From NCBI GenBank assembly GCA_020633495.1, contig JACKDR010000001.1:118105-182104 (forward strand): DNA of 64,000 bases, written 5' to 3'. The notes beneath the pieces were generated by a model that was given only the letters and a program-made list of their open reading frames with translations, ran no database searches and was not told the DNA's origin. The DNA comes from Kofleriaceae bacterium (GTDB taxonomy: Bacteria; Myxococcota_A; Polyangia; Haliangiales; Haliangiaceae). Of the stretch, positions 26,087 through 49,841 are shown one piece after another. Made by a program: the position numbers and the translations under genes. Every line of letters starts with the position of its first letter. The stretch's first letter is position 1.

Positions 26087-26800
26087 ATGCATGGGATCCG
26101 TAGCTTCGTCGGTGGTGCCCTCGGGATCGCGGCCTCGATCGCGCTGACCGCGCTCGGGCTGACCGGGTGCTTCGAGACACCACAGCCGTCGTGCGCCTTC
26201 CAGTGCGGCGCCGGCGGATCGTGCCCCGACAACTACAGCTGCCGGCCCGACAACATGTGCAAGCTCGCCGGCGTCGCCGACGACTTCGCCTGTCCCAACG
26301 TGCCGACCGGCGGCATCGACGCCGGGCCCGACGCCGAGCCGGCCGACGCCGCCGACGTCGACGCCATGTCCGTCGACGCCATGCCCATCGACGCCGCCCC
26401 GATCGACGCGATGCCGATCGACGCGATGCCCATCGACGCCATGCCCATCGACGCCATGCCCATCGACGCGGCGCCGGCGGCGCTGACGATCACGACCGCG
26501 TCGCCGCTGGCGTTCGGGCAGCAGACGGTCGCGACCACCGCGATGATGACCGTCGACGTCAGCAACAGCGGTGGCGTCGCGACCTCGGCGATCACCGTCG
26601 GCATCAGCGGCGACGCCGAGTTCAGCCTGGTCGCCGGCGGCTCCGACACCTGCAGCACCCAGACCCTGGCGCCGGCCGCGACCTGCCACTTCGACGTCAG
26701 CTTCACGCCCGCCACGACGACGACGTACACCGGGCTGGTCACGGTGTCCGCCACCACCGGCGGCGCCCCGATGATCGCGGTCACCGGCGAGGGCATCTAG
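26087..26800 (+). CDS. lipoprotein with (P-I-D-A-M/A) pentapeptide repeats and C-terminal beta-sandwich-like domain
   Basis: The N-terminus has a signal peptide with lipobox LTGC. Residues 100-130 read VDAMPIDAAPIDAMPIDAMPIDAMPIDAMPIDAAP. These are encoded by tandem 15-nt repeats at about 26380-26470. Confidence 0.6.
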   Translation: MHGIRSFVGGALGIAASIALTALGLTGCFETPQPSCAFQCGAGGSCPDNYSCRPDNMCKLAGVADDFACPNVPTGGIDAGPDAEPADAADVDAMSVDAMPIDAAPIDAMPIDAMPIDAMPIDAMPIDAAPAALTITTASPLAFGQQTVATTAMMTVDVSNSGGVATSAITVGISGDAEFSLVAGGSDTCSTQTLAPAATCHFDVSFTPATTTTYTGLVTVSATTGGAPMIAVTGEGI

Positions 26801-26803
26801 GCG

Positions 26804-29260
26804 GTGACTGCGCCGGCGCTGCCGTCGCGCGCCCGCGTCGTGGTGATCGGCGGCGGCATCATCGGCTGCTCGGTCGCCTACCACCTGGCCCACGCCGGGT
26901 GGGACGTCCTGGTGCTCGAGCGCGACCGCCTGACCTCGGGCACGACCTGGCACGCCGCCGGGCTGATGGTCACGTTCGGGTCGACGTCGGAGACCTCGAC
27001 CGAGATGCGCAAGTACACGCGCGATCTCTACGCCCGGCTCGAGGCCGAGACCGGCCAGGCCACCGGGTTCAAGCCGGTCGGGTTCATCGAGGTCGCCGCC
27101 GATCGCGACCGCCTCGAGGAGTACCGGCGGGTGTCGGCGTTCAACCGCCACTGCGGGGTCGACGTCGAGGAACTGTCCCCGGCGCAGGTCGGCGAGATGT
27201 TCCCGCTGGCCCGCACCGACGATCTGCTGGCCGGGTTCTACGTCGCCGGCGACGGCCGCGCCGACCCGGTCGACGTCACGATGGCGCTGGCCAAGGGCGC
27301 GCGTCAGCAGGGCGCGCGGATCGTCGAGGGCGTCGCGGTCACCGACGTCATCCGCAAGGGCCGCGCGGTGGCCGGCGTCCGCACCGCGCACGGCGACGTC
27401 GAGGCCGAGTACGTCGTCAACTGCGCCGGCATGTGGGCGCGCCAGCTCGGCGCCCGCCACGGCGTCAACATCCCGCTGCAGGCCGCCGAGCACTACTACC
27501 TGATCACCGAGAAGGTGCCGGGGCTGAGCGCGAGCTGGCCGGTGCTCGAGGATCCGGGGTCGCACGGCTACTTCCGCGAGGAGGTCGGCGGCCTGATGAT
27601 CGGCCTGTTCGAGCCGGTGTGCGCGCCGTGGCAGGTCGGCGGCGTGCCCGAGGACTTCTCGTTCGGCTCGCTGCCGCCCGACTGGGAGCGCATGGGGCCG
27701 TACCTCGAGCGCGCGATGCAGCGGGTCCCGGTGTCGATGGAGACCGGGGTCAAGAAGTTCTTCTGCGGGCCCGAGAGCTTCACGCCCGACCTGCAGCCGT
27801 GCGTCGGCGAGGCGCCGGAGCTGCGCAACTACTTCGTCGCCGCCGGCCTCAACTCGATCGGCATCCTCACCGGCGGCGGCCTCGGCCGGGTGCTGGCGCA
27901 CTGGATCATGACCGGCCGGCCCGACGTCGACGTCACCGGCTTCAACGTCGATCGCCTGCACACCTACCAGGCCAACCCCGAGTACCGGCGGACCCGCACC
28001 GTCGAGTCGCTGGGCATGGTCTACCAGTGCCACTACCCGACCCGGTCGATGCGGACCGCGCGCGGCGCCAAGACCTCGGCGTTCCACGACCGCCTGGCGG
28101 CGCGCGGCGCGTTCTTCCGCGACGTCAGCGGCTGGGAGGGCGCCGACTGGTACGCGCCCGCCGGGCAGGTCGCCGAGGAGGGCGCGCTCACCTGGGGCCG
28201 GCCCCACTGGTTCGACAGCTGGGCGGCGGAGCACCGCGCCGCGCGCGACGGCGTGATCCTGATGGACATGTCGTTCATGTCGAAGTTCCTGGTCCAGGGC
28301 CGCGACGCCGGCCGGGCGCTCGACTGGATCTCGGCCAACCACGTCGACGGCGACGCCGGCCAGATCACGTACACGCAGTGGCTCGACGACGCCGGCAAGC
28401 TGCAGGCCGACCTCACGGTGACCAAGCTCGACGACGAGCGGTTCTGGGTGGTCGCCTCCGACACCGCGCACGGCCACGTCCAGGCGTGGATGCGGCGCCA
28501 CCTCGCGCGCGACGCCCACGCCTTCGTCACCGACGTCACCTCGGGGCACGCCCAGCTCAACGTCCAGGGCCCGCGCTCGCGCGAGCTGTTGCAGGCGGTG
28601 ACCAGCGTCGACCTGTCGAACGCGGCGTTCCCGTTCCGCGCCGCGCGCGAGATCGACATCGGCTTCGCGCGGGTCTTGTGCGTGCGGATCACCTACCTGG
28701 GCGAGCTCGGCTACGAGCTGTACATCCCGACCGAGCAGGCGACCCACGTCTACGACCGCCTGGTCGCCGCCGGCGAGCCGTTCGGCCTGCGCCACGCCGG
28801 GCTCAAGGCGCTGGCCAGCCTGCGGCTCGAGAAGGCCTACCGCGACTGGGGCCACGACGTCGACAACACCGACACCGTCCTCGAGGCCGGGCTCGGCTTC
28901 GCCGTCGATCTGACGAAGCCGGGCGGCTTCCTCGGCAAGGACGCGGTGGTGGCACAGAAGGCGGCCGGGCCGCTGCACAAGCGCCTGGTCCAGGTGCTGG
29001 TGCAGGATCCGACGCCCCTGATGTTCCACGCCGAGATCGTCCACCGCGACGACCGCGCGGTCGGCTACGTGCGCGCGGCGTCGTACGGCCACACCCTGGG
29101 CGGCGCGGTCGGCCTGGCGATGATCGAGGCCGACGAGCCGATCGACGCCGCGTGGCTCGCGCGCGGCCGCTGGGAGATCGACATCGCCGGCGTCCGCTAC
29201 CCGGCGGTGGCGTCGCTGCGGCCGCTCTACGATCCGAAGAACGAGCGGGTCAAGGCGTAG
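26804..29260 (+). CDS. FAD-dependent oxidoreductase fused to GcvT-like aminomethyltransferase domain (dimethylglycine/sarcosine dehydrogenase family)
   Basis: An N-terminal DAO-type FAD motif (VVVIGGGIIGCSVAYHLA) is joined to a C-terminal folate-binding GcvT-like domain. The ORF is clean at 818 aa. Confidence 0.8.
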   Translation: MTAPALPSRARVVVIGGGIIGCSVAYHLAHAGWDVLVLERDRLTSGTTWHAAGLMVTFGSTSETSTEMRKYTRDLYARLEAETGQATGFKPVGFIEVAADRDRLEEYRRVSAFNRHCGVDVEELSPAQVGEMFPLARTDDLLAGFYVAGDGRADPVDVTMALAKGARQQGARIVEGVAVTDVIRKGRAVAGVRTAHGDVEAEYVVNCAGMWARQLGARHGVNIPLQAAEHYYLITEKVPGLSASWPVLEDPGSHGYFREEVGGLMIGLFEPVCAPWQVGGVPEDFSFGSLPPDWERMGPYLERAMQRVPVSMETGVKKFFCGPESFTPDLQPCVGEAPELRNYFVAAGLNSIGILTGGGLGRVLAHWIMTGRPDVDVTGFNVDRLHTYQANPEYRRTRTVESLGMVYQCHYPTRSMRTARGAKTSAFHDRLAARGAFFRDVSGWEGADWYAPAGQVAEEGALTWGRPHWFDSWAAEHRAARDGVILMDMSFMSKFLVQGRDAGRALDWISANHVDGDAGQITYTQWLDDAGKLQADLTVTKLDDERFWVVASDTAHGHVQAWMRRHLARDAHAFVTDVTSGHAQLNVQGPRSRELLQAVTSVDLSNAAFPFRAAREIDIGFARVLCVRITYLGELGYELYIPTEQATHVYDRLVAAGEPFGLRHAGLKALASLRLEKAYRDWGHDVDNTDTVLEAGLGFAVDLTKPGGFLGKDAVVAQKAAGPLHKRLVQVLVQDPTPLMFHAEIVHRDDRAVGYVRAASYGHTLGGAVGLAMIEADEPIDAAWLARGRWEIDIAGVRYPAVASLRPLYDPKNERVKA

Positions 29261-29356
29261 GCCACCGCGGCAGGAGCGTCGTCGACGGCCGCCGCGGGAG
29301 CGTCGTCGAGGGCCGCCGCAGGAGCGTCGTCGACGGCCGCCGCAGGAGCGTCGTCC
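29261..29356. repeat. tandem 24-nt repeat (x4), unit approx GGCCGCCGCAGGAGCGTCGTCGAC
   Basis: Four head-to-tail copies with 1-2 mismatches sit directly after the stop of the upstream dehydrogenase. Confidence 0.7.
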
Positions 29357-29600
29357 CTTCGCTCACCCCGAGCGAAGGGGGAGGTGCGCAGCACCGAGCG
29401 GATCAAGGCGTCGCTCGCGGGCGGCGGCCGCCGCGCTTCGCTCACCCCGAGCGAAGGGGGAGGTGCGCAGCACCGACCCCGGCGTCGAGGGGGCGGGCGC
29501 CGCGCCGCGCCCCGCGTCGACCGGCGGCGCACCGATCCACCCCCCCTCGACTTCGCCCTCGCGGCTGCGCCGCTCGGGCTCCGCTCGGGGTGAGCGTGCG
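29354..29600. repeat. REP-like palindromic elements: two direct copies of an approx 43-nt unit (CCCTTCGCTC-ACCCC-GAGCGAAGGG + GGAGGTGCGCAGCACCGA) and one inverted partial copy
   Basis: Near-identical units lie at about 29354-29398 and 29443-29478. Each contains a 10-bp stem around an ACCCC loop. The core CGCTCACCCCGAGCG recurs in reverse orientation at about 29582-29596. Confidence 0.65.
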
Positions 29601-29606
29601 GGGCAA

Positions 29607-29818
29607 CCGACGACGACACCGACGAAACCGACGACACCGATGACGCCGACGACAGCGACGACACCGACGACACCGACGACGCCGACGACACCGACGACAC
29701 CGACGACACCGACGACACCGACGACACCGACGACACCGACGACACCGACGACGCTGACGACACCGACGACACCGACGACACCGACGACACCGACGACACC
29801 GATGACACCGACGACGAC
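29607..29818. repeat. tandem 9-nt repeat array (approx 23 units, CGACGACAC/ACGACACCG with point variants)
   Basis: The array reads as (Pro-Thr-Thr)n or (Ser-Val-Ser)n in the listed ORFs. It sits between two convergent stop codons (29260 and 29824), so it is most likely non-coding. Confidence 0.7.
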
Positions 29819-29823
29819 GCGGG

Positions 29824-30456
29824 CTACCGCCGGGCGCCGGCGCGGCCGCGCAGCTGGCGGAGCCGGGTGTGCTCCTCGCGCTCGCGCTCGTCGAGGGCGC
29901 GGCCGATCGCGGCGATGCGGTCGCGCAGCGCCGGGGCGACGCGCTGCTCGAGGGTGTGCAGCTGCCGCGAGGTGCGCGCCAGGGCCTGGCCGAGCGAGCG
30001 GACGTGGAGCTCGCGCGACGCGGCGTCGAGCAGGACCGCGGCGAGCCGCTCGAACCGGTTGGCGGCCTCGAACAGCGCCGGGCCGGTCGCGCCCGGCGCG
30101 GTGCCGCGCGCGGCCAGGCCGCGGTCCCACACCGGCAGCTCGGCGAGGCGCGGCACGGTCACGCCCCAGACCCGCGTCACCTCGACGTCGACGACCAGCT
30201 CGCGCGACGGCCAGCCGGTCGCGGCCACCGCGCCGGCGCCGTCGATCGCGAGGGCGTCGAGCTCGGCGCGGTACGCGGCCGCGGCGGCGTCGCCGATGAC
30301 GCGGCGGGCGTCGGCCGCCGGCTGGGCCAGCGGGAACAGCTCGCGGACCAGCGCCTCGCGCTTGCGGCGCAGCAGCGCCGCGCCCTTGGCGACGCGCGCC
30401 AGCAGGCGCCGGCTGCGCAGCAGCTCGGCCCGGGTCGGCGCCGCCCGCGCCCTCAC
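29824..30456 (-). CDS. atpD: V/A-type ATP synthase subunit D
   Basis: GTG 30456 is preceded by GGGGAGGG. The N-terminus VRARAARPTRAELLRSRRLLARVAKGAALLRRKREAL is typical of subunit D. The start overlaps the B stop as GTGA. Confidence 0.8.
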   Translation of the reverse strand: MRARAAPTRAELLRSRRLLARVAKGAALLRRKREALVRELFPLAQPAADARRVIGDAAAAAYRAELDALAIDGAGAVAATGWPSRELVVDVEVTRVWGVTVPRLAELPVWDRGLAARGTAPGATGPALFEAANRFERLAAVLLDAASRELHVRSLGQALARTSRQLHTLEQRVAPALRDRIAAIGRALDEREREEHTRLRQLRGRAGARR

Positions 30457-31841
30457 GCGCCCTCCCCGGCCGCGGCGCCGGGCCGACGCGCCCAGGTGTC
30501 GTCGTCGAGGCGCTCGAGATCGTCGCGCGGCAGCGACTCGAGCAGGCGCCAGCCGGCCGCGATCGTGTCGGCGATCGTCCGCCGGGTCGCGCCCTGGCCG
30601 ACCAGCTCGCGCTCGAACCGGGTCGCGAAGCCGAGGGCGCGACGATCCGGATCGCTGAGCCCGGCCTCGCCGACGATCGTCGCCATCATCCGGGCCTCGC
30701 GGCCGCGCGCGTAGCTGGCGTACAGCTGGTCGGCCCAGCGCCGGTGCTCGCGCGCGGTCTTGCCGGCGCCGATGCCGGCGTTCATCAGCCGCGACAGCGA
30801 CGGCAGCACGTCGATCGGCGGGAACACGCCCTGGGCGTGCAGCTCGCGCGACAGCACGACCTGGCCCTCGGTGATGTAGCCGGTGAGATCCGGGATCGGG
30901 TGGGTGATGTCGTCGTCGGGCATCGTCAGGATCGGCAGCTGCGTCAGCGAGCCCGCGCGGCCCTGCAGCACGCCGGCGCGCTCGAACAGCGTCGCCAGGT
31001 CGGTGTACATGTAGCCGGGGTAGCCGCGCCGCCCCGGCACCTCGTCGCGCGCCGCCGCGACCTGGCGCAGCGTCTCGCAGTAGTGCGCGACGTCGGCCAT
31101 GACCACGAGGACGTGCATGCCGGCCTCGAAGGCGAGGAACTCGGCCTGGGCCAGCGCGTAGCGCGGCGTCAAGAGCTGCTCGATCGTCGGATCGCGGGTC
31201 TCGTTGAGGTACAGCACGCTGCGCGCCATCGCCGGGCTGTCGCGGAACCGCTCGACGAACAGCCGGGTCTCGCGCGCGGTGATGCCGATCGCGGCGAACA
31301 CCACCGCGAACGGCTCGCCGCCGCCGGCGCGGGCGTGCTCGACGATCTGCGCGGCCAGCTCCAGCGCCGGCAGGCCGGCGCCCGAGAACACCGGCAGCTT
31401 CTGGCCGCGGACCAGCGTATTGAGGCCGTCGATCGCGCTGACCCCGGTCTCGATGACGTCGCCGGGCGGGTGGCGCCGCGCCGGGTTCATCGGCGCGCCC
31501 CACACCGGCCGCAGCGCCTCGCCGATCGGCGCCGGCAGGCCGTCGAGCGGCGCGCCGACGCCGGTGAGCGTGCGCCCCAGCAGATCGCGCCCGACCGGCG
31601 CCTCGGCGACCGCGCCGGTCAGCGTGATCGTCACCCGCGCCGGCGACAGCCCCTGCGGATCCTCGAGGATCTGGATCACCGTGACGCCGTCGCCGGCGTC
31701 GATGACCTGGCCGCGCCGCGCCGGCTGCCCCGGCTGGGTCAGCTCGACGACCTCGCCCATCGCGGCGCCGCGGGCGTCGTCGAGGAACAAGAGCGCGCCG
31801 GCCAGGGCGCGCGCGCCGCGATGGTGGCGGACCGCGATCAC
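30453..31841 (-). CDS. atpB: V/A-type ATP synthase subunit B
   Basis: GTG 31841 is preceded by GGGAGGTG and overlaps the A stop. The sequence is strongly subunit-B-like (GQKLPVFSGAGLP, RGYPGYMYTDLATLFERAG). Confidence 0.85.
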   Translation of the reverse strand: MIAVRHHRGARALAGALLFLDDARGAAMGEVVELTQPGQPARRGQVIDAGDGVTVIQILEDPQGLSPARVTITLTGAVAEAPVGRDLLGRTLTGVGAPLDGLPAPIGEALRPVWGAPMNPARRHPPGDVIETGVSAIDGLNTLVRGQKLPVFSGAGLPALELAAQIVEHARAGGGEPFAVVFAAIGITARETRLFVERFRDSPAMARSVLYLNETRDPTIEQLLTPRYALAQAEFLAFEAGMHVLVVMADVAHYCETLRQVAAARDEVPGRRGYPGYMYTDLATLFERAGVLQGRAGSLTQLPILTMPDDDITHPIPDLTGYITEGQVVLSRELHAQGVFPPIDVLPSLSRLMNAGIGAGKTAREHRRWADQLYASYARGREARMMATIVGEAGLSDPDRRALGFATRFERELVGQGATRRTIADTIAAGWRLLESLPRDDLERLDDDTWARRPGAAAGEGA

Positions 31842-33622
31842 GGGGCACCTCCCGCGGGCCGGCGGTGCAGCGCCGCGATCGCGGCCTCGACCGCGGCGGC
31901 GCGCGCCGGCAGCTCGTCGCCGGGGCCGGTCCGCAGCGCCGCGAACGCGCGCCGCACCGCGACCAGCTCGAGCTCGTCGATCGTGGCGCCGGCGTCGAGC
32001 GCGGCCTCGGCGGCGTCGAGCGTGGCGACCGCGAGCTGCGCCATGCACCCGGTCTTCTCGACCGACGACGACGCGTCGTTGGGGTCGAACGCGCTCTGCC
32101 CCAGCAGGTGCTCGCGCACCATGCGCGCGACCTCGATCGTCGCGCGGTCGCGATCCTGCAGGGCCTCGTGGCCGAGCAGGCCGGCGATCTCGCGCAGCTC
32201 GGCGTCGCGCTGCAGCAGCCCGAGCACGCGCGCGCGCAGCTCGGCCCACGGCACGCCGGCGCGCTCGGTCAGCCACGACGCGGTGGCGTCGACGTACAGC
32301 GAGTAGCTGGTGGCCCAGTCGACCGCCGGGAACTGGCGCTTCTGGGCCAGCGCCGGATCGAGCGCCCACAGCCCGCCCGCGACCCGCAGCGACGCCTGGG
32401 TCACCGGCTCGGCGAAGTCGCCGCCCGGCGGCGACACCGCGCACACCAGCGACACCGCGCCGGTGCGCGCCGGCGTGCCGTGGACGCGGGCCCGGCCGGC
32501 CCGCTCGTAGAGCTGGCCGAGGCGGCTGGCCAGGTGGGTCGGGTAGCCCTCCTCGCCCGGCATCTCCTGCAGCCGCGCCGCGATGTCGCGCAGCGCCTCG
32601 GCCCACCGCGACAGGCTGTCGACCATGACCGCGACCCGGTAGCCCATGTCGCGGTAGTACTCGGCGATCGACACGCCGAGGTAGACCGAAGCCTCGCGCG
32701 CGACCACCGGCATGTTCGAGGTGTTGACGATCAGCACGGTGCGCTCCATGACCGGGCGGCCGGAGCGCGGATCGACCAGGCGCGGGAACTCCTGCACCAC
32801 CTCGGCCATCTCGTTGCCGCGCTCGCCGCAGCCGACGAAGACGACGACGTCGGCGGCGGCGTGGCGGGCCAGGCCGTGCTCGATCACGGTCTTGCCGGTG
32901 CCGAACCCGCCGGGCACCGCGATCGTCCCGCCCTCGGCGAGGGGGAACAGCAGATCAAAGACGCGCTGGCCGGTGACCAGCGGCCGGTCGGCGGGCAGCC
33001 GCTCGGCCACCGGGCGCGGCTGCCGCAACGGCCAGCGCTGGGCCAACCGCACCACCGTGCCGTCGCCGAGGCGGCCGACCGGCTCGTCGACGGTGACGTC
33101 GCCGCCGCGCAGCTCGACGACCTCGCCGCCGGCGCCGGGCGGGACCAGGACGCGGTGCTCGAAGCCCGGCTGCTCCTCGACGACGCCGAGCAGGTCGCCG
33201 GCGGCGACCTGATCGCCGACCGCGGCGCGCGGCTCGAAGCGCCAGCGCCGCGCCGGATCGAGGGTCGGCGCCGCGGCGCCCGGCGCGACGAAGTCGCCGC
33301 TGGCCGCAGCCAGCTCGCGCAGCGGCCGGCCGACGCCGTCGAGGATCGCGCCGAGCAGGCCGGGGCCGAGCGCGACGGTCAGCGGCGCGCCGGTGGCCAC
33401 CACCGGGGCGCCCAGCGCCAGCCCGGTGGTGTCCTCGTAGATCTGCAGCACCGCGGCGTCACCGGTGAACCGGATGATCTCGCCGAGCAGGCCGTGGGCG
33501 CCGACCCGGACCAGCTCGTAGAGCCCGGCGTCGCGCAGCGGCCGGGCCTCGGCGAGCGTGCCGGTGACCCGGGTCAGGACCGCGCCCGGCGTCGCGGTCG
33601 TCGTCGTCGTCGCGCTGGTCAT
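31838..33622 (-). CDS. atpA: V/A-type ATP synthase catalytic subunit A
   Basis: A P-loop GGFGTGKT is present, with GER...E and a conserved C-terminal region. ATG 33622 overlaps the F stop as ATGA. Confidence 0.85.
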   Translation of the reverse strand: MTSATTTTTATPGAVLTRVTGTLAEARPLRDAGLYELVRVGAHGLLGEIIRFTGDAAVLQIYEDTTGLALGAPVVATGAPLTVALGPGLLGAILDGVGRPLRELAAASGDFVAPGAAAPTLDPARRWRFEPRAAVGDQVAAGDLLGVVEEQPGFEHRVLVPPGAGGEVVELRGGDVTVDEPVGRLGDGTVVRLAQRWPLRQPRPVAERLPADRPLVTGQRVFDLLFPLAEGGTIAVPGGFGTGKTVIEHGLARHAAADVVVFVGCGERGNEMAEVVQEFPRLVDPRSGRPVMERTVLIVNTSNMPVVAREASVYLGVSIAEYYRDMGYRVAVMVDSLSRWAEALRDIAARLQEMPGEEGYPTHLASRLGQLYERAGRARVHGTPARTGAVSLVCAVSPPGGDFAEPVTQASLRVAGGLWALDPALAQKRQFPAVDWATSYSLYVDATASWLTERAGVPWAELRARVLGLLQRDAELREIAGLLGHEALQDRDRATIEVARMVREHLLGQSAFDPNDASSSVEKTGCMAQLAVATLDAAEAALDAGATIDELELVAVRRAFAALRTGPGDELPARAAAVEAAIAALHRRPAGGAP

Positions 33623-33951
33623 CGCAACCTCAGGCGGTAGCCGACCGACTGCCGCAGGATCTCCAGCAGCTCCTCCTCGGGCGCCGGCCCGGCCGCGCCG
33701 AGCGCCGGTCCCGGGAACGGCATCAGGATCGGCGTGCCGTCGCGGCGCAGCTGGCGCCGCAGCGGTGCCGGCAGCGCGTCGTAGAGCGCGCGCTCGATCA
33801 GGATCACGCCGCCGTGATCGGCGCGGCGCGCCAGCCGCGTCACCGCCGCCGCCGCCGCCGCGCCGTCGGCGACCTCGGTGCACGCCAGGCCGGCCAGGCC
33901 CAGGCCCAGCGCCGCCGGGCGCCGCGCGATCGCGTGGATCGGCGCCTTCAT
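33619..33951 (-). CDS. atpF: V/A-type ATP synthase subunit F
   Basis: ATG 33951 is preceded by GGGAGG. The protein is 110 aa (MKAPIHAIARRPAALGLGLAGLACTEVADG...GVILIERALYDALP...). The remainder of its long ORF upstream is junk. Confidence 0.7.
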   Translation of the reverse strand: MKAPIHAIARRPAALGLGLAGLACTEVADGAAAAAAVTRLARRADHGGVILIERALYDALPAPLRRQLRRDGTPILMPFPGPALGAAGPAPEEELLEILRQSVGYRLRLR

Positions 33952-34933
33952 CGGCCGCCTCCCATCGCGACCCGCCACGCGGCGCGGCGGACGCGCCGGA
34001 CCTCGGCGCGGCGCCGCAGCACCAGCCACACCACCGCCGCCGGCCCGGCCGGATCGACGACGCGCAGCCGCCGCTGGGTCTCGAGGTGCCAGCGCAGCGC
34101 CGCGCGATCGAGCGCGTCGGCGTCGCCGCCGCGCAGCGCGCCGACCAGCGGCGTGCCGACGAAGACGCCGGCCAGGACGTCGCGCGCGCCCTCGACTGGC
34201 CGGCCGCGGCGGCGCGGAACGCGGCGCGCCCGAGGTGGCCCCGCCCGGCACCATCGCGGCGGCGACGTCGACGTCGCCCCGCGCCGCCAGCATCAGCGCG
34301 GCGCCGGCGTTCTCGACGTCGACGACCTGGGCGACGTGGACCGCCAGCGGCCCGGCCGGGGCGCCGGCGCGGGCCCGCCGCGCGAACGCGCGCGCCATCG
34401 CGTGCTCGGCCGCGTACAGGTCGACCGGCGCGTGCGCCAGCGGCGTCGCCAGCGCCGCGGCCAGCGGGTGACCTCGCCGGCGCAGCCGCGCCACCAGGTC
34501 GGCGGGCGAGGCCGCGGCGGCCAGCTCGCGCAGCTCGGCGTCAGGCAAGCGCGGCGTCGGGATCGCGGCGGCCAGGCGCGCCGCGATCGGCGCGCCGGCG
34601 GCGAGACCGCGGATCAGGGCGCGCAGGGCGCGCCGGTCCTCGTCGTCGAGGATCACCGCCAGCGCGCGCTCGGCGGCGGCGCCGGCGCCGCAGGCCCAGC
34701 GCGCCAGCGCGGTCAGATCGTCGCCGGCGCGGGCCAGCGCGGCGGCCTCGATCGCCCTCGGGCGAGCCGTCGCCGAGGATCGCGCGCGGGAAGCTGGCGC
34801 GATCGAGCGCGGCGACCAGCGCGCCGCGATCGGCGGCGTCGTCGACCGCGCCGAGCGCGTCGTCGTCGACGAGGTGGGTGCCCAGGCCGTGCGCCCGCGC
34901 CGCCACCGCGACCCACGTGCCGGCGCCGGTCAC
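33948..34933 (-). CDS. atpC: V/A-type ATP synthase subunit C (d-type); span not a multiple of 3, at least 2 internal frameshifts
   Basis: GTG 34933 is preceded by GGGGAGGG and overlaps the E stop as GTGA. The N-terminal part (VTGAGTWVAVAARAHGLGTHLVDDDALGAVDDAADRGALVAALDRASFPRAILGD) is in one frame. The middle part (...HAMARAFARRARAG...VDVENAGAALMLAARGD) is in the subunit-F frame. The C-terminus is inferred to end at the TGA overlapping atpF's ATG. Confidence 0.5.
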
Positions 34934-35538
34934 GCCGCGCCCTCCCCGGCCGGCGTCGGCGCCGCGGCGGGCGCCGCCTCGACGCGCAGCCGCGGCCACC
35001 ACCGCGCCAGCAGCGTCGTCAAGCGTCGCGTCGATCGTGACCCGGCCGCCGTCGAGCTCGACGCGCACGCCGGTCGTGACCTCAGGATCGGCGACGACCC
35101 GCAGCGCTGGCGCCCCGGTCGCGGCGAGCCGCGCCTGCACCGCCGCCAGCCGCGCCGGCGCGCACCGGACCTCGCCCGCCGCGCCGCCGGCGCCGCGACC
35201 GCGCCGGCGACCAGCGCGTCGCGCAGCCGCGCCCCGGCGTCGCCGTCGAGCAGCCCCGGCAGCGCCGCCTCGAGCGCGGCGCGGACCCGCGCCAGGGCGG
35301 CGGCCCGCGCGGTCAGGACCTCGGCGTGGACCCGGCGCGCCACCGTCGCCACCGCCGCGTCGGCCTCGGCCTGGCGGCCGATGCGATAGGCCTCGATCTC
35401 GGCGGCGGTGTCGGCGTCCCGGCGCGCCGTCGCGTCGGCGATCAGGCGCGCCGCGTCGACGCGCCCGGCCTCGCGGATCGCGTCGGCGTCGGCCGCGGCC
35501 TCGGCCTCGAGCGCGCGCAGGAGCTCGGCGATCGCCAT
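34930..35538 (-). CDS. atpE: V/A-type ATP synthase subunit E; central ~60 codons in another frame (two compensating shifts)
   Basis: The N-terminus MAIAELLRALEAEAAADADAIREAGRVDAARL... and the C-terminus (...LLARWWPRLRVEAAPAAAPTPAGEGAA*) are in ORF 34930..35538. The conserved middle segment (EVRCAPARLAAVQARL...VRVELDGGRVTIDATLDDAA) is in the frame of ORF 34541..35755. Confidence 0.6.
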   Translation of the reverse strand: MAIAELLRALEAEAAADADAIREAGRVDAARLIADATARRDADTAAEIEAYRIGRQAEADAAVATVARRVHAEVLTARAAALARVRAALEAALPGLLDGDAGARLRDALVAGAVAAPAARRARSGARRRGWRRCRRGSPRPGRQRCGSSPILRSRPACASSSTAAGSRSTRRLTTLLARWWPRLRVEAAPAAAPTPAGEGAA

Positions 35539-35547
35539 GGCGCGACC

Positions 35548-35766
35548 TCAGCCCCCTCGCAGGACGATCAGCACCGCGACGACGAAGCCCAGGATCACCA
35601 TCGTCTCGGGGATGGCGACCAGCAGCACCGCGGTGGTGCGCAGCTCGGGCTTCTCGGCGAGCGCGCCCGCGACCGCCGCGCCGATGCGGGACTGGGCCCA
35701 GGCGGTGGCGAGCGCGCTGCCGGTGATGGCGAGGGCGGCTCCGACGGCGATCCACAGGGCTTCCAT
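35548..35766 (-). CDS. atpK: V/A-type ATP synthase subunit K (proteolipid, c-subunit)
   Basis: ATG 35766 is preceded by GGAGG. The protein MEALWIAVGAALAITGSALATAWAQSRIGAAVAGALAEKPELRTTAVLLVAIPETMVILGFVVAVLIVLRGG is a two-helix hairpin with the conserved Glu. Confidence 0.75.
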   Translation of the reverse strand: MEALWIAVGAALAITGSALATAWAQSRIGAAVAGALAEKPELRTTAVLLVAIPETMVILGFVVAVLIVLRGG

Positions 35767-35776
35767 GACAGGCCTC

Positions 35777-37653
35777 CTAGGGGCTGGCGACCGATCCGGG
35801 GCTCCAGTGGGCGAACGGCTGGTACCGCCCACCGCCCGGACTGAAGAACGTGCCGAAGAACTCCACGTAGTGCAGGCGCAGGACGTGGATCGTCGGGCTG
35901 AACAGCGCGATCGCGAAGTTGACGAGGTGGAACAGCAGCGCGAAGACGACGCCGATCACCGCGCCGCCGAACGCGCCGACCATCCGGTTGGCGACCACCG
36001 CGAGCATCACCGACGCGGTGCCCAGCGCCATGACGCGGGCGTACGACAGGACGTGCCCGACCGTGGTCAGGAGCTCGAGCAGCGCGGTCGCGCCCTCGAG
36101 CGCGATCAGGATCGGGAACGCGACCAGCAGCGCGACGATCGCGGGCGTGAACAGCGCGTGGGGCAGCAGCTCGAAGACGGTCGCCAGCGCCAGCGCGATC
36201 AGCAGGAGCATCAGCGCGGTCAGGCCGCGCCCGGCGGCCTCGCGCGGGTGGCCGCGCCGCGAGATCGCGGACACCACGAGCCCGAGCAGCATGTGGACCA
36301 GGCCGAGCGCGATCGCCAGGCCCAGGAACGGCAGCACCGCGTCCTCGCGGTCGAGCCACAGCGGCCGCATGCCGAACCAGCGCTCGCCGAGGTCGCCGAA
36401 CAGCTCGCCGTAGAGGACGCCGAAGATGATCATGTAGCTGGCGACCGCGGCCGCGATCTTGGCCAGGTCGCGGGCCAGGCCGCGACCCCGGCCCCGCGCG
36501 AACAGGATCGCCGCGATCGTCGCCAGCAACAGGCCGTAGCCGACGTCGCCGACGATGATGCCGAACAGCATCGGGAAGAACACCGCGACGAACGGGGTCG
36601 GGTCGACGCTGCCGTAGCGAGGCAGCGGCAGCATCGCGGTCAGCCGCTCGAACGGCTCGAAGACCCGCGGGTTGGTCAAGACCACCGGCGCCTCGGCGCC
36701 GCGCCAGTGGTCGCGCCCGACGGTCTCGACGACGACGGCGTCGCCGAGGCGGGCGTGCAGCTCGGTGGCGAGCGCGGCGCGGGCCCGCGCCGGCACCCAG
36801 CCCTCGACGACGAACGCGCGCGCGGTCTCGGCCGCGACGCCGCGGGCCTCGAGCGCGAGCAGCTCGTCGTGGAGGCCGCGCCGGGCCCGCACCAGCTCGG
36901 CGCCGACGGCGTCCCGCAGCGCCGTCGCCGCGGCCTCGACCTCGGCGAGCTCGCGCTCGAGCTCGGCCAGGCGCGGCCGCAGCCGCGGCAGCGCGTCGAT
37001 CAGCGGCGCGCCGGCGAGCCCGACCGGCACCGCGGCGCGCTCGACGGGCGCCGGCGAGCAGCCGGTCGACGACGTCGCCGCGGCCCTCCGGGACCAGCAG
37101 CAGCAGCGCCAGCTCGCCGCTGGGCAGGGCGTGCGATCGCAGCTCGCAGGCGCCGTCGAGCGTCCGCTCCAGCGCCTCGCGCAGCCGCGCCAGCGTGCCG
37201 GCGCCGCCGCGCTGCAGCCGCAGCAGGTGGGCCGCGAACCGCCGGTCGACGCGGTCGCCGCCGAGCAGCGCCTCGAGGTCGGCGACCAGCGGCGCCCAGG
37301 GCGCGCAGCGCGTCGCGCTCGTCGGTGAGCGCGCGGGCGCGGCGGTGCAGCCGGCCGGCGTCGCGCGCGTCCGGGCCGCCAGCCGCGCCGCCGCGCGCTG
37401 CGGTCGGCGCGGCGCCGCCGTCGTCGCCGCGCTGCCACGGCACGCCGAGCTCGGCCAGCGCGGTCAGCGCGACCTCGACCCGGGTCAGCACGCGATCGAC
37501 GTCGCGGTGACGACGTCGCTCGGCCGGCGACGCCTGGCGCCGCGGCAGCGCGTCGTCGGGCGGCGGCTCCAGGTGGACGGTGCCCAGATCCTGCAGCGCC
37601 GCGAGCGTGCGCGCGAGGTCGGCCTTGCGCCCCATCAGCCGCACGCGCGTCAT
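35777..37653 (-). CDS. atpI: V/A-type ATP synthase subunit I (a-subunit); N-terminal cytoplasmic domain needs 2 frameshifts (approx 37030-37110)
   Basis: The N-terminus MTRVRLMGRKADLARTLAALQDLGTVHLEPP... begins at ATG 37653. A short segment (SHALPSGELALLLLVPEGRGDVVDRLLAGA) lies in a third frame. The membrane domain, about 450 aa with multiple TM helices, is in ORF 35777..37438. Confidence 0.65.
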
Positions 37654-40858: not shown

Positions 40859-42166
40859 ATGCCAGTCGAGCGGATGCTCGTGTGTGTGATCTTGATCGCT
40901 GGGTGTGGCAGCGGAGGAGCCTCGCCTCCTGACGCCGGCGACATCGACGGCGCCCCCGGCGACGTCAGCACGAGCCCGGACGCCGGGCCCGACGCCGACC
41001 TCGACGCCACGCCGCCCGATGGCATGGCGATCGATGCCATGCCGATCGACGCCGCCCCGATCGACGCCGCCCCGATCGACGCCATGCCGATCGACGCCGC
41101 CCCGATCGACGCCGCCCCGATCGACGCCATGCCGATCGACGCCACGCCGATCGACGCCATGCCGATCGACGCCATGCCGACCTGCGTCGTGCCGGCCTTC
41201 ACCACCGGCGTCAGCACCCTGGCCGGCTGCGAGATCGCCGCCAACGTCGACGGCGCGCGCGCCGACGCGCGCTTCGCCAACCCGGTCAACGTCGCGCGCG
41301 GTCCCGACGGCGACCTCTACGTCGCCGACTTCGACAACAACGAGGTGCGGGTCGTGACCGCGGCCGGCGCCGTGCGCACGCTGGTGGCCCAGACCCACTT
41401 CGTCCGGCCGTTCGGGATCGCGTTCACCGCCGCCGGCGCGCTGTACGTCCAGACCGACGACGACGATCTCGGCGCCCACTCGGGCTCGACCGGAACCGTC
41501 TGGGAGGTCGACCTCGTCACCGGCGTCGCCACCGTGGTGGTCCGCGACGTCGGCCGGCCGCGCGGCCTCGCCGCCCTCGCCGACGGCCGCCTGGTCCTGT
41601 CGGACTACGTCCACCACACGATCCGTCTGCTCGATCCCGACACCGGCACGATCACCGATCTCGCCGGCGCCACCGACCTACCCGGCTACGCCGACGACGT
41701 CGGCGCCGCCGCACGCTTCGACGGTCCCTACGACGTCGCGGTCCTCCCCGACGGCCGGATCGCGGTCGCCGACCTCTTCAACCAGCGGATCCGCGCGGTC
41801 GCGCTCGACGGCACCGTGACCACGCTGGCGGGCACCGGCACGCCCGGCGCCACCGACGGCGACGCCCTCACCACCGCGACCTTCCAGTATCCGGTCGGCC
41901 TCGCCGTCGACAGCGCCGGCGACCTGTACGTCACCGACACCGGCAACTTCGTCGTCCGCAAGCTCGCCGCCGGCGCCGTGACCACGGTGGTCGGCGACGG
42001 CACCGGCGACTGGCTCGACAGCGACAACCTGCTGGCGGCGCGGCTCTACGGCCTCGAGGGCGCCGACGTCAGCGCCGACGGCGCGACGCTGTGGCTCGCC
42101 GACGGCAGCCGGGGCGAGGCCCTGCCGTACAACCGCGTCCGCGTCGTCGACCTGACCGGCCCCTAG
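40859..42166 (+). CDS. NHL-repeat beta-propeller lipoprotein (paralog 2) with (P-I-D-A-x)n linker
   Basis: The start is MPVERMLVCVILIAGCGSGG. A run of about 30 PIDAA/PIDAM/PIDAT pentapeptides lies at about 41020-41185. The NHL core that follows shares long identical stretches with paralog 1 (ARFANPVNVARGPDGDLYVADFDN...). Confidence 0.65.
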   Translation: MPVERMLVCVILIAGCGSGGASPPDAGDIDGAPGDVSTSPDAGPDADLDATPPDGMAIDAMPIDAAPIDAAPIDAMPIDAAPIDAAPIDAMPIDATPIDAMPIDAMPTCVVPAFTTGVSTLAGCEIAANVDGARADARFANPVNVARGPDGDLYVADFDNNEVRVVTAAGAVRTLVAQTHFVRPFGIAFTAAGALYVQTDDDDLGAHSGSTGTVWEVDLVTGVATVVVRDVGRPRGLAALADGRLVLSDYVHHTIRLLDPDTGTITDLAGATDLPGYADDVGAAARFDGPYDVAVLPDGRIAVADLFNQRIRAVALDGTVTTLAGTGTPGATDGDALTTATFQYPVGLAVDSAGDLYVTDTGNFVVRKLAAGAVTTVVGDGTGDWLDSDNLLAARLYGLEGADVSADGATLWLADGSRGEALPYNRVRVVDLTGP

Positions 42167-42169
42167 AAG

Positions 42170-42443
42170 CGTGTACCCGATCGCCCCCCGGCCCGGGACG
42201 CCCCACCGAGATGAGGGGCTGGGTCCCGAGATGCTCGGCGAACTGGACGTTGGCGGCGGAGACGTAACCGGTGTCGGCGGTGACGCAGACCGGAACCGCG
42301 TCGCAGTTGCGGACGACACGTCGGCGCAGCGGCTCGAAGTCCTGGGCGTCGGGGGCCTGCTTGCTGAGGGCGGTGGCCACGATGATCGGGTGCGACGCGG
42401 GCGGCCACTCGCGCGGCGACGGCGGCAACAGGAACGACTGCAT
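42170..42443 (-). mobile_element. IS5/IS4-family transposase C-terminal fragment (relic)
   Basis: The translation ...HPIIVATALSKQAPDAQDFEPLRRRVVRNCDAVPVCVTADTGYVSAANVQFAEHLGTQPLIS resembles the DDE-domain C-terminus of IS5-type transposases (ADKGYDS...N...L...G...I). No N-terminal part or inverted repeats are present, and the frame decays into junk. Confidence 0.45.
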
Positions 42444-42801
42444 CAGCGCGTACTGACGGTCGGCCTTCCCCCCGCCCTTCGATCAGCTCGCCGCGCTCGT
42501 GTCGATCCGTTCGTGTTCGACCCGCGGTGGTGGTGGTGCCAGGCCACGCCGGCACGGGTGACGGGAGCGTGTGGGGGGCGGCCGACGGCGAGTTCCGCAG
42601 CGGGCCCGCGCCACCACGAGACGGCGTCACCGCCCGCGCCCGCCTCGCCGCCCGCGTTCTCGTCACCGCGAGGACTGTCCGAGCCGGAGGACGCCCCCCC
42701 CGCGCTCGCGGCAGGACCCGGGCCGGCGGCCCGCGGTCTCCCCACCGCTCGCGCAGGCGGGGATCCGCGACACGCTCCCAGGCCGGCGCCCTGGCCGAGA
42801 C

Positions 42802-49370: not shown

Positions 49371-49841
49371 ATGTCCAGATCCATCGTCGCCCTGCTCGTC
49401 TCCACCCTCGTCGCCGTCGCCACCGCGTGCATCCCGCCGTCGCAGACCGGCAACGGCGACGGCGCCGCCCCGCCGTCGTCGTCATCGTCGCGCGGCGGCC
49501 AGGGCGGCGGCTACGCCAGCACCGGCGGCAGCGGCGACCTGTGCCAGCGCGCGTGCCAGCGCTTCGCCGACTGCGGCCTCGACCAGCTCGATCCGTGCGT
49601 GCAGTCGTGCAGCGGCGGCACGATCGCCGCCGACCGGCTCGAGCTGTTCGCGGCCAGCTCGTGCGAGGACCTGCAGTCGTACATGCAGTACGGCGCGCCG
49701 GCCAACCAGACCGGCCAGGGCTGCGCCAGCCACGGCGCCAACGACTGCCCGAACATGGCGGTGTGCTGCAACGGCGACGTCACCACCGGCACGCCCGGCC
49801 AGTGCATCGCCGCGGCGATCTGTTACGCGCCGACGCGGTGA
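49371..49841 (+). CDS. small Cys-rich secreted lipoprotein
   Basis: A signal peptide with lipobox VATACIPP is followed by a Gly/Ser linker and a 12-Cys domain (CQRACQRFADCGLDQLDPCVQSCSGG...CPNMAVCCNG). Confidence 0.5.
   Translation: MSRSIVALLVSTLVAVATACIPPSQTGNGDGAAPPSSSSSRGGQGGGYASTGGSGDLCQRACQRFADCGLDQLDPCVQSCSGGTIAADRLELFAASSCEDLQSYMQYGAPANQTGQGCASHGANDCPNMAVCCNGDVTTGTPGQCIAAAICYAPTR

Follow-up and report, generated by a model that had tools for sequence, protein, structure and literature searches.

The 563-bp gap at 29261-29823, which separates the stop codons of two convergent genes in an uncultured Kofleriaceae myxobacterium, is an ordinary kind of bacterial repeat DNA. It is probably, though by no means certainly, a palindromic element of the REPIN/MITE-like type together with locally generated duplications and VNTRs, lying at a rearrangement junction and specific to its lineage. 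The window, by which is meant the whole 64 kb stretch of DNA that was analysed, has a GC content of about 76%. The original prediction of a convergent, repeat-built gap between two stop codons was borne out, with every feature found in its place. Its statement that three repeat classes make up the gap entirely went too far: counted from the coordinates they cover about 80%, and the remainder consists of the spacer of a central hairpin (29494-29541) and a fragment of a gene 3' end (29395-29411).

The left gene (26804-29260, plus strand, stop codon TAG at 29258-29260) encodes a dimethylglycine/sarcosine-dehydrogenase-like protein of the DAO/GcvT-fusion kind, with Pfam matches in the order DAO-FAO_M-GCV_T-GCV_T_C, and its product is 100% identical to MCB9558890.1 from a Kofleriaceae metagenome-assembled genome (MAG) at NCBI. 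A C-terminus of the ..NERVKA-type is the common end in 44 full-length homologues among the matches listed, so the true end of the dehydrogenase gene is at 29260. The right gene (29824-30456, minus strand, stop codon TAG at 29824-29826) had been called atpD, a name that does not hold: it matches PF01813 and encodes subunit D of a V/A-type ATPase rather than the F-type beta subunit. An I-K-E-C-F-A-B-D operon (29824-37030 of the window) ends with this gene, whose product is identical to MCB9558891.1 of the Kofleriaceae MAG. A second Kofleriaceae MAG also has the dehydrogenase and subunit D genes side by side (MCB9570553.1/MCB9570554.1).

The center of the gap is occupied by copies of a palindrome whose core, CGCTCACCCCGAGCG, is found as an exact match at 29360 and 29439 on the plus strand and at 29582 on the minus strand, and at no other site in the 64 kb. 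The two direct copies and one inverted copy that had been predicted are therefore all present as exact matches, and a 28-nt stretch taken from the 41-nt direct repeat gives two matches where none is expected. The extended stem of 10 bp ascribed to the palindrome is found in copy 1 only; the stem is 8 bp long in copy 2 and 5 bp in the inverted copy. The three copies are more aptly taken as one inverted doublet, which forms a hairpin of about 160 nt, plus one locally duplicated arm.

The doublet is a REPIN-like palindromic element at 29436-29600, with arms of 55 nt that are 76% complementary and lie 48 nt apart; this pair of arms is the longest inverted repeat in the window. Folded as DNA it reaches -76.7 kcal/mol (z = -4.84), and 0 of 200 shuffled sequences fold as well. 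The predicted structure is a four-way junction, whether the element is folded as DNA or as RNA and whichever strand is taken. Its basal helix of 15-17 bp is made from both cores, the left one (CGCTCACCCCGAGCG, 29439-29453, plus strand) giving the 5' half and the right one (29582-29596, minus strand), an exact match in inverted orientation, giving the 3' half. Above it, the predicted arm hairpin h2 (29456-29480, plus strand; GGGG-GA-GGTGC-GCA-GCACC-GA-CCCC) is composed of 4 bp, a tandem G.A internal loop, 5 bp and a GCA triloop, and it is mirrored on the other side by h2' (29555-29579, plus strand; GCCC-TC-GCGGC-TGC-GCCGC-TC-GGGC), which has a different stem sequence. GNA-type triloops and tandem G.A mismatches thus characterize the arm hairpins. 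Between them stands a central hairpin (29484-29551, plus strand) closed by the helix GTCGAGGGGG/CCCCCTCGAC. A G-N-A-G tetranucleotide precedes the arm hairpin and reads GTAG in one of the four arms compared below; we presume a resemblance here to the GTAG head of E. coli REPs.

Further copies were sought with a strict 22-base pattern common to all three window copies, CGCTCACCCCGAGCG-N11-GCGCAGC. It has five matches in 185,579 species genomes, four of them coding and one non-coding, and two in the JGI metagenomes, both coding; the window's own locus is missing from the matches, so the source genome belongs to neither collection. Six of these seven matches are coding look-alikes and were set aside, mostly LuxR-type helices, with a glycosyltransferase-like gene and one other gene among the rest. 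DNA for the LuxR-type helix-turn-helix sequence ..LTPSERRVAQL.., found in high-GC actinobacteria (loci L005-L007 and L009), is a recurrent false match to the palindrome pattern. The non-coding match (locus L003, 1641-1755), from a Deltaproteobacteria MAG of 66% GC (Myxococcota), is a homologous inverted-doublet element. It lies 122 nt after the stop codon of a gene, in the intergenic space between an esterase-like and an exonuclease-like gene that are unrelated to those of the window. The two elements have in common the core, the GCGCAGC loop region and a GTCGAGGRGG helix at the same offset; L003 also has a second, inverted arm, and both this arm and the helix fall outside the search pattern. 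The L003 element folds independently, on either strand, into a four-way junction (z = -7.5).

A full alignment of the two elements misplaces their right halves, the central hairpins being of different length, and the comparison was made instead between the independently predicted folds. The central hairpins differ in both length and sequence, and their closing helix is conserved. Among the four arms (two from the window and two from L003), 5 of the 11 pairs of h2 have changed on both sides and are still paired, and over both arm helices pairing holds in 90% of cells, where slid controls reach 32-45%. The tandem G.A internal loop is kept in three of the four arms, the fourth having two C-G pairs in its place. 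On these comparisons, the predicted arm hairpin has been kept between the two elements by compensatory changes. The L003 element itself lies inside another inverted repeat, of about 25 bp (GGGAGTGGATGCCATCCTGAGCAT / ATGTTCAGGATGGCATCCACTCAC, within 1602-1800), a layout that looks as if an older hairpin had received the element in its loop. The outer flanks of the window element, which are the tandem arrays, are likewise partly complementary.

Membership of the palindrome in a REP or MITE family, as originally proposed, receives support from the homologous hairpin in L003; a high-copy REP family is not borne out, the strict scan having returned one relative. The other genomic copies that were expected are absent from the remaining 63 kb of the window, and there are no further copies of the element in about 76 kb of related Kofleriaceae/Myxococcales loci. 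Two looser patterns run against viral contigs gave 0 matches and 2 chance matches, and a blastn search of plasmids gave a single irrelevant 43-nt match in Streptomyces. No RAYT, Y1 or other transposase is found among 23 window sequences (22 predicted proteins and one ORF fragment). The evidence points to a low copy number for the element, the source genome lying outside the scanned collections.

The third copy of the palindrome has its own history. The singlet left arm (29357-29397, plus strand) is a 41-nt stretch 100% identical to 29436-29476, at a spacing of 79 nt, and its core can form a local 10-bp hairpin, CCCTTCGCTC-ACCCC-GAGCGAAGGG. At 29395-29411 (plus strand) there is also a sequence, CGAGCGGATCAAGGCGT, that matches the last 17 nt of the dehydrogenase CDS (CGAGCGGGTCAAGGCGT, 29242-29258, plus strand) at 16 of 17 positions (94%). 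The intergenic fragment is the copy and not the source, since homologues fix the real gene end at the first of the two. The sequence preceding the second arm copy aligns, by local alignment, to the last unit of the 24-nt array. Because the arm is identical at 41 of 41 positions, a gene-end copy of 17 nt accompanies it, the two arm copies are 79 nt apart and the alignment runs on into the array, the third palindrome copy is, as read from the sequence, a local segmental duplication of about 79 nt and not an independent insertion.

On either side of the palindromic copies lie the two tandem arrays, both much as predicted. Tandem Repeats Finder (TRF) gives 3.8 copies of the 24-nt unit, CCGCCGCAGGAGCGTCGTCGACGG, at 29265-29355 (score 161, 92% matches), for a prediction of four, and 22.8 copies of the 9-nt unit at 29611-29815 (score 354, 91% matches), for a prediction of about 23. 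With 91-92% matches, both have the near-identical head-to-tail units of a VNTR or minisatellite. One identical unit, CACCGACGA, accounts for 15 of the 23 copies of the 9-nt array; variant units are mostly proximal to the hairpin and interspersed, and the longest runs of identical units are interior. Such a pattern would be the usual picture of recent expansion by slippage. The two arrays are also related to each other. The 24-nt array contains GCGTCGTCG, the complement of a motif at the far end of the 9-nt array, and this sequence is found 3-18 nt past the TAG of each gene when each is read on its own gene's strand. The outer flank motifs GCGTCGTCG and CGACGACGC are partly complementary, and the complementarity of the 24-nt array to 29791-29820 and 29808-29820 provides the outermost helix in the predicted folds.

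The gap may have been put together as follows. Non-coding repeat DNA would have accumulated at a lineage-specific junction of two convergent transcription units, around a core formed by one palindromic extragenic element of REPIN/MITE type. Replication slippage or unequal recombination around its very stable hairpin most likely made the rest locally: a segmental duplication of about 79 nt would have copied the last 17 nt of the gene and the left arm, a 24-nt motif would have expanded on the left outer flank and a 9-nt motif on the right. A mobile or selfish origin may be supposed for the element itself, and slippage may be supposed as the source of the arrays, a suggestion drawn only from the purity of their units.

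Relatives place both the junction and the repeats in a narrow lineage. At 82-85% protein identity, relatives have other neighbors beside either flanking gene (a pseudouridine synthase side, ftsQAZ, an arsA-like gene) and no such repeats, which makes both the junction and the repeats a peculiarity of this species-level lineage. All the Kofleriaceae/Myxococcales genomes compared keep the V/A-type ATPase operon, and the gene past subunit D differs in every lineage examined, being the dehydrogenase in the window, ftsQ-ftsA-ftsZ in L011 and an arsA-like gene in L016. To judge from these gene orders, the 3' end of the operon is a recurrent rearrangement point.

Since the source is a MAG, the repeats could in principle have been made or inflated by mis-assembly of a metagenome bin. 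Short-read assemblies do break at this locus: the contig of the closest relative, at 98%, ends 65 nt before the dehydrogenase stop, and the Logan assemblies SRR15097283 and SRR12358675, whose subunit D is 1-2 residues off that of the window, both end inside the 9-nt array. These three fragmentary assemblies, all ending at the gap locus, illustrate how repeat-rich spacers break short-read assemblies. Before their ends, however, both Logan contigs have an identical 51 nt after the subunit D stop, including the first 9-nt units. The 9-nt array is real, because two independent sequencing runs agree base for base over these first 51 nt and reproduce the junction between subunit D and the array exactly. 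The same gene adjacency in two NCBI MAGs, the interspersed variant units, as expected of real sequence, and the homologue of the palindromic element elsewhere (L003) also speak against an artefact, which we regard as very unlikely. Still harder to credit is that the arrays are coding, as a Ser/Val-, Asp/Thr- or Pro/Thr-rich tail or as a small protein, reached by read-through of a TAG or from a start of its own. The period of each array is divisible by three, each array is in frame with the stop codon next to it, and the minus-strand frame past the subunit D stop, beginning with a GTG at 29808, is open over 193 codons (29227-29808); on the plus strand, 29261-29593 is open in frame for 110 codons. 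However, a GC content of 76% makes long open frames commonplace, and the periods are explained by both units being degenerate trinucleotide repeats; we judge the open in-frame arrays to be chance combined with this trinucleotide substructure. By a composition-based map, the real genes of the window have GC1 of about 0.75, GC2 of about 0.5 and GC3 of about 0.98 (about 0.96-0.99 in most), a GC3 that no frame in 29357-29610 reaches, and the central 250 nt have coding composition in no frame. The only gene-like frame of the 9-nt array (DDT, plus strand) comes after a stop codon and lacks a start. The other frames (PTT, SSV, VVG) either show a GC content that is wrong by codon position or lead into antisense junk, and in the 24-nt array the frame that continues the upstream gene does not have the composition of coding sequence. 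Homologues of both flanking proteins stop at the same positions. MCB9558890.1/MCB9558891.1 and MCB9570553.1/MCB9570554.1 are consecutive accessions, and therefore NCBI called no CDS between the flanking genes in either MAG. A six-frame peptide query of the element against 5.8 billion proteins returned nothing at E <= 1, a result in which flooding by low-complexity matches may hide true ones.

A role in ending transcription was also part of the original prediction, and it deserves more weight. Nested hairpins would stop or trim both convergent transcripts and so spare the opposite gene antisense RNA, by themselves or with Rho, making the gap a bidirectional terminator or insulator. The gap sits exactly between two convergent stop codons, its hairpin is very stable on both strands, and the L003 element likewise lies 3' of a gene. 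In position and in GC-rich dyad symmetry foldable on both strands it resembles bidirectional intrinsic terminators, from which it differs in lacking flanking A/U tracts and in being about ten times larger. Stable GC hairpins are present, and U-tracts are missing from both strands: 29261-29823 contains no T run of 3 or more and one AAA, and a terminator scan of the gap found 0 canonical sites. Without U-tracts, this is not a canonical terminator. For a Rho-dependent variant one could point to the 9-nt array, whose plus strand (C 42%, G 24%, T 1%), read from the dehydrogenase side, would give about 200 nt of C-rich, G-poor and weakly structured RNA, predicted to be mostly unpaired and resembling a Rho loading site. 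This idea is speculative and draws on composition, which any arbitrary tandem unit skews. Relatives with the same operon have spacers of 31-260 nt that contain no such structure, and a repeat-rich spacer of 560 bp far exceeds what termination needs. A selected terminator or insulator, in either form, is on balance rather unlikely. The stable hairpins could still serve both convergent mRNAs as a barrier at the 3' end, by analogy with E. coli REPs, and such an effect on transcripts, if real, would probably be incidental or secondary.

Could the four-way junction instead be kept for a function of its own? It would then be a conserved structured element of low copy number and not a selfish one, either an RNA motif of 3' UTRs or a recognition site in single-stranded DNA. 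The same junction architecture is found in two distant genomes at unrelated loci, its arm stems are swapped by compensatory changes, the core, triloop region and central closing helix are conserved in sequence, and the apparent copy number is low. Conservation of this kind, across genomes of 66% and 76% GC, could point to a selected structured element in place of a REPIN. Against the REPIN/MITE-like reading it also counts that the family has two known loci, with one locus in 64 kb of the source genome, that the window sequences include no transposase and that the hairpin has no target-site duplication. The two examples, however, each give two arms of possibly shared ancestry, and the element is almost strand-symmetric, as is typical of DNA palindromes rather than RNAs. 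It has no Rfam match and no conserved gene association. The covariation does not separate the two readings, because the spacers of REPINs also keep their hairpins by compensatory change (PMC3337134). A selected structured element of this sort seems improbable to us. The same doubtful standing attaches to a more specific version, in which a low-copy Myxococcota junction of extreme stability would be the single-stranded-DNA structure that some undescribed enzyme of HUH/Y1 type recognizes, or else a new RNA motif of 3' UTRs, and this stability would drive the formation of the neighboring duplications and arrays.

The preferred reading, that of a REPIN/MITE-like element, can be set against known systems. 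A REPIN is defined by two inverted REPs around a spacer that varies in sequence and still forms a hairpin (PMC3337134). The window element has two inverted cores (29439-29453 on the plus strand and 29582-29596 on the minus strand) with 76% complementary arms, and its spacer varies and retains its hairpins, 5 of 11 pairs of h2 having changed in a compensatory manner and the closing helix of the central hairpin being kept. It is extragenic, as REPs and REPINs are, both in the window, between two stop codons, and in L003, between genes. Like the REP/BIME clusters of Pseudomonas and Enterobacteria, it lies at gene 3' ends and has a decaying or duplicated singlet beside the doublet. In a typical REP or REPIN family, a genome contains tens to hundreds of copies, which stand out as over-represented 16-mers, and a single-copy RAYT gene that they flank (PMC5581495). 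The window and L003 elements differ in showing no sign of many copies and, in the window sequences, no RAYT; they also differ in their host phylum, Myxococcota, in their larger size (about 115-165 nt, against about 90-110 nt) and in folding into a four-way junction where REPINs form one long hairpin. MITEs such as Correia/NEMIS in Neisseria and ERIC/IRU in enterobacteria are similar in being non-coding, intergenic and 100-160 bp long, with long imperfect terminal inverted repeats, here the 55-nt arms of 76% complementarity, that fold into hairpins in transcripts, as is predicted for this element. It differs from them in that no target-site duplication, parent insertion sequence or dispersed copies were detected. 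No direct repeat abuts 29436 and 29600, and the 17-nt direct repeat (29242 and 29395) brackets the local duplication and not the hairpin. The arrays resemble mycobacterial MIRUs and intergenic VNTRs in being head-to-tail, intergenic, located in a high-GC genome, of periods that are multiples of three and abutting stop codons. Unlike MIRUs, they are single-locus sequences and not a dispersed family, and their units of 9 and 24 nt are much shorter; MIRU units measure about 46-100 nt.

Several other classes were considered for the gap. A CRISPR array would have repeats of about 24-48 nt with unique spacers of much the same length between them. Both arrays are head-to-tail with a period equal to the unit length and no spacers, which upholds the earlier view that they are not CRISPR, and an Rfam CRISPR-DR match lies outside the gap and below threshold. 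Rfam 15 otherwise gave only sub-threshold miRNA/snoRNA noise, and ARAGORN found no tRNA or tmRNA. An integron attC site, whose boxes have the consensus RYYYAAC / GTTRRRY, was set aside, no R''/R' boxes being seen; so was a retron msr/msd, the element having no flanking reverse transcriptase gene, and so were DnaA boxes or iterons, which the 9-nt unit does not resemble.

Literature searches turned up no REP, REPIN or MITE family described for Myxococcota, and the element family appears to be undescribed. If whole-genome data bear it out, Myxococcota would have a REPIN/MITE-like family with an unusual four-way-junction shape, a modest extension of the known range of bacterial extragenic repeats with no bearing on any major open question. 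The arrays, put forward in the original prediction as a possible hypervariable locus, may possibly offer a VNTR locus for strain typing in an uncultured Kofleriaceae species.

Elsewhere in the window, 42167-42801 is a second long convergent spacer of 635 nt, part of it at a lower GC of 71%. A minus-strand ORF fragment within it (..VTADTGYVSAANVQFAEHLG..) has no Pfam match and the look of a DDE transposase C-terminus. At 49380-49841 lies a gene for a Cys-rich protein of 153 aa, without Pfam match, of gene-like composition and probably secreted. A 15-nt tandem unit, TCGACGCCATGCC[C/G]A, with a higher-order period of 45 nt, occurs twice at a distance of 15 kb: 7.5 copies at 26358-26469, in the gene for a Cep192_D4-like protein (26117-26800), and 12 copies at 41001-41180, in the gene for an NHL-repeat protein (40892-42166). 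These tandems probably encode Ile-Asp-Ala-Met/Ala-Pro linker repeats near the N-termini of the two proteins.
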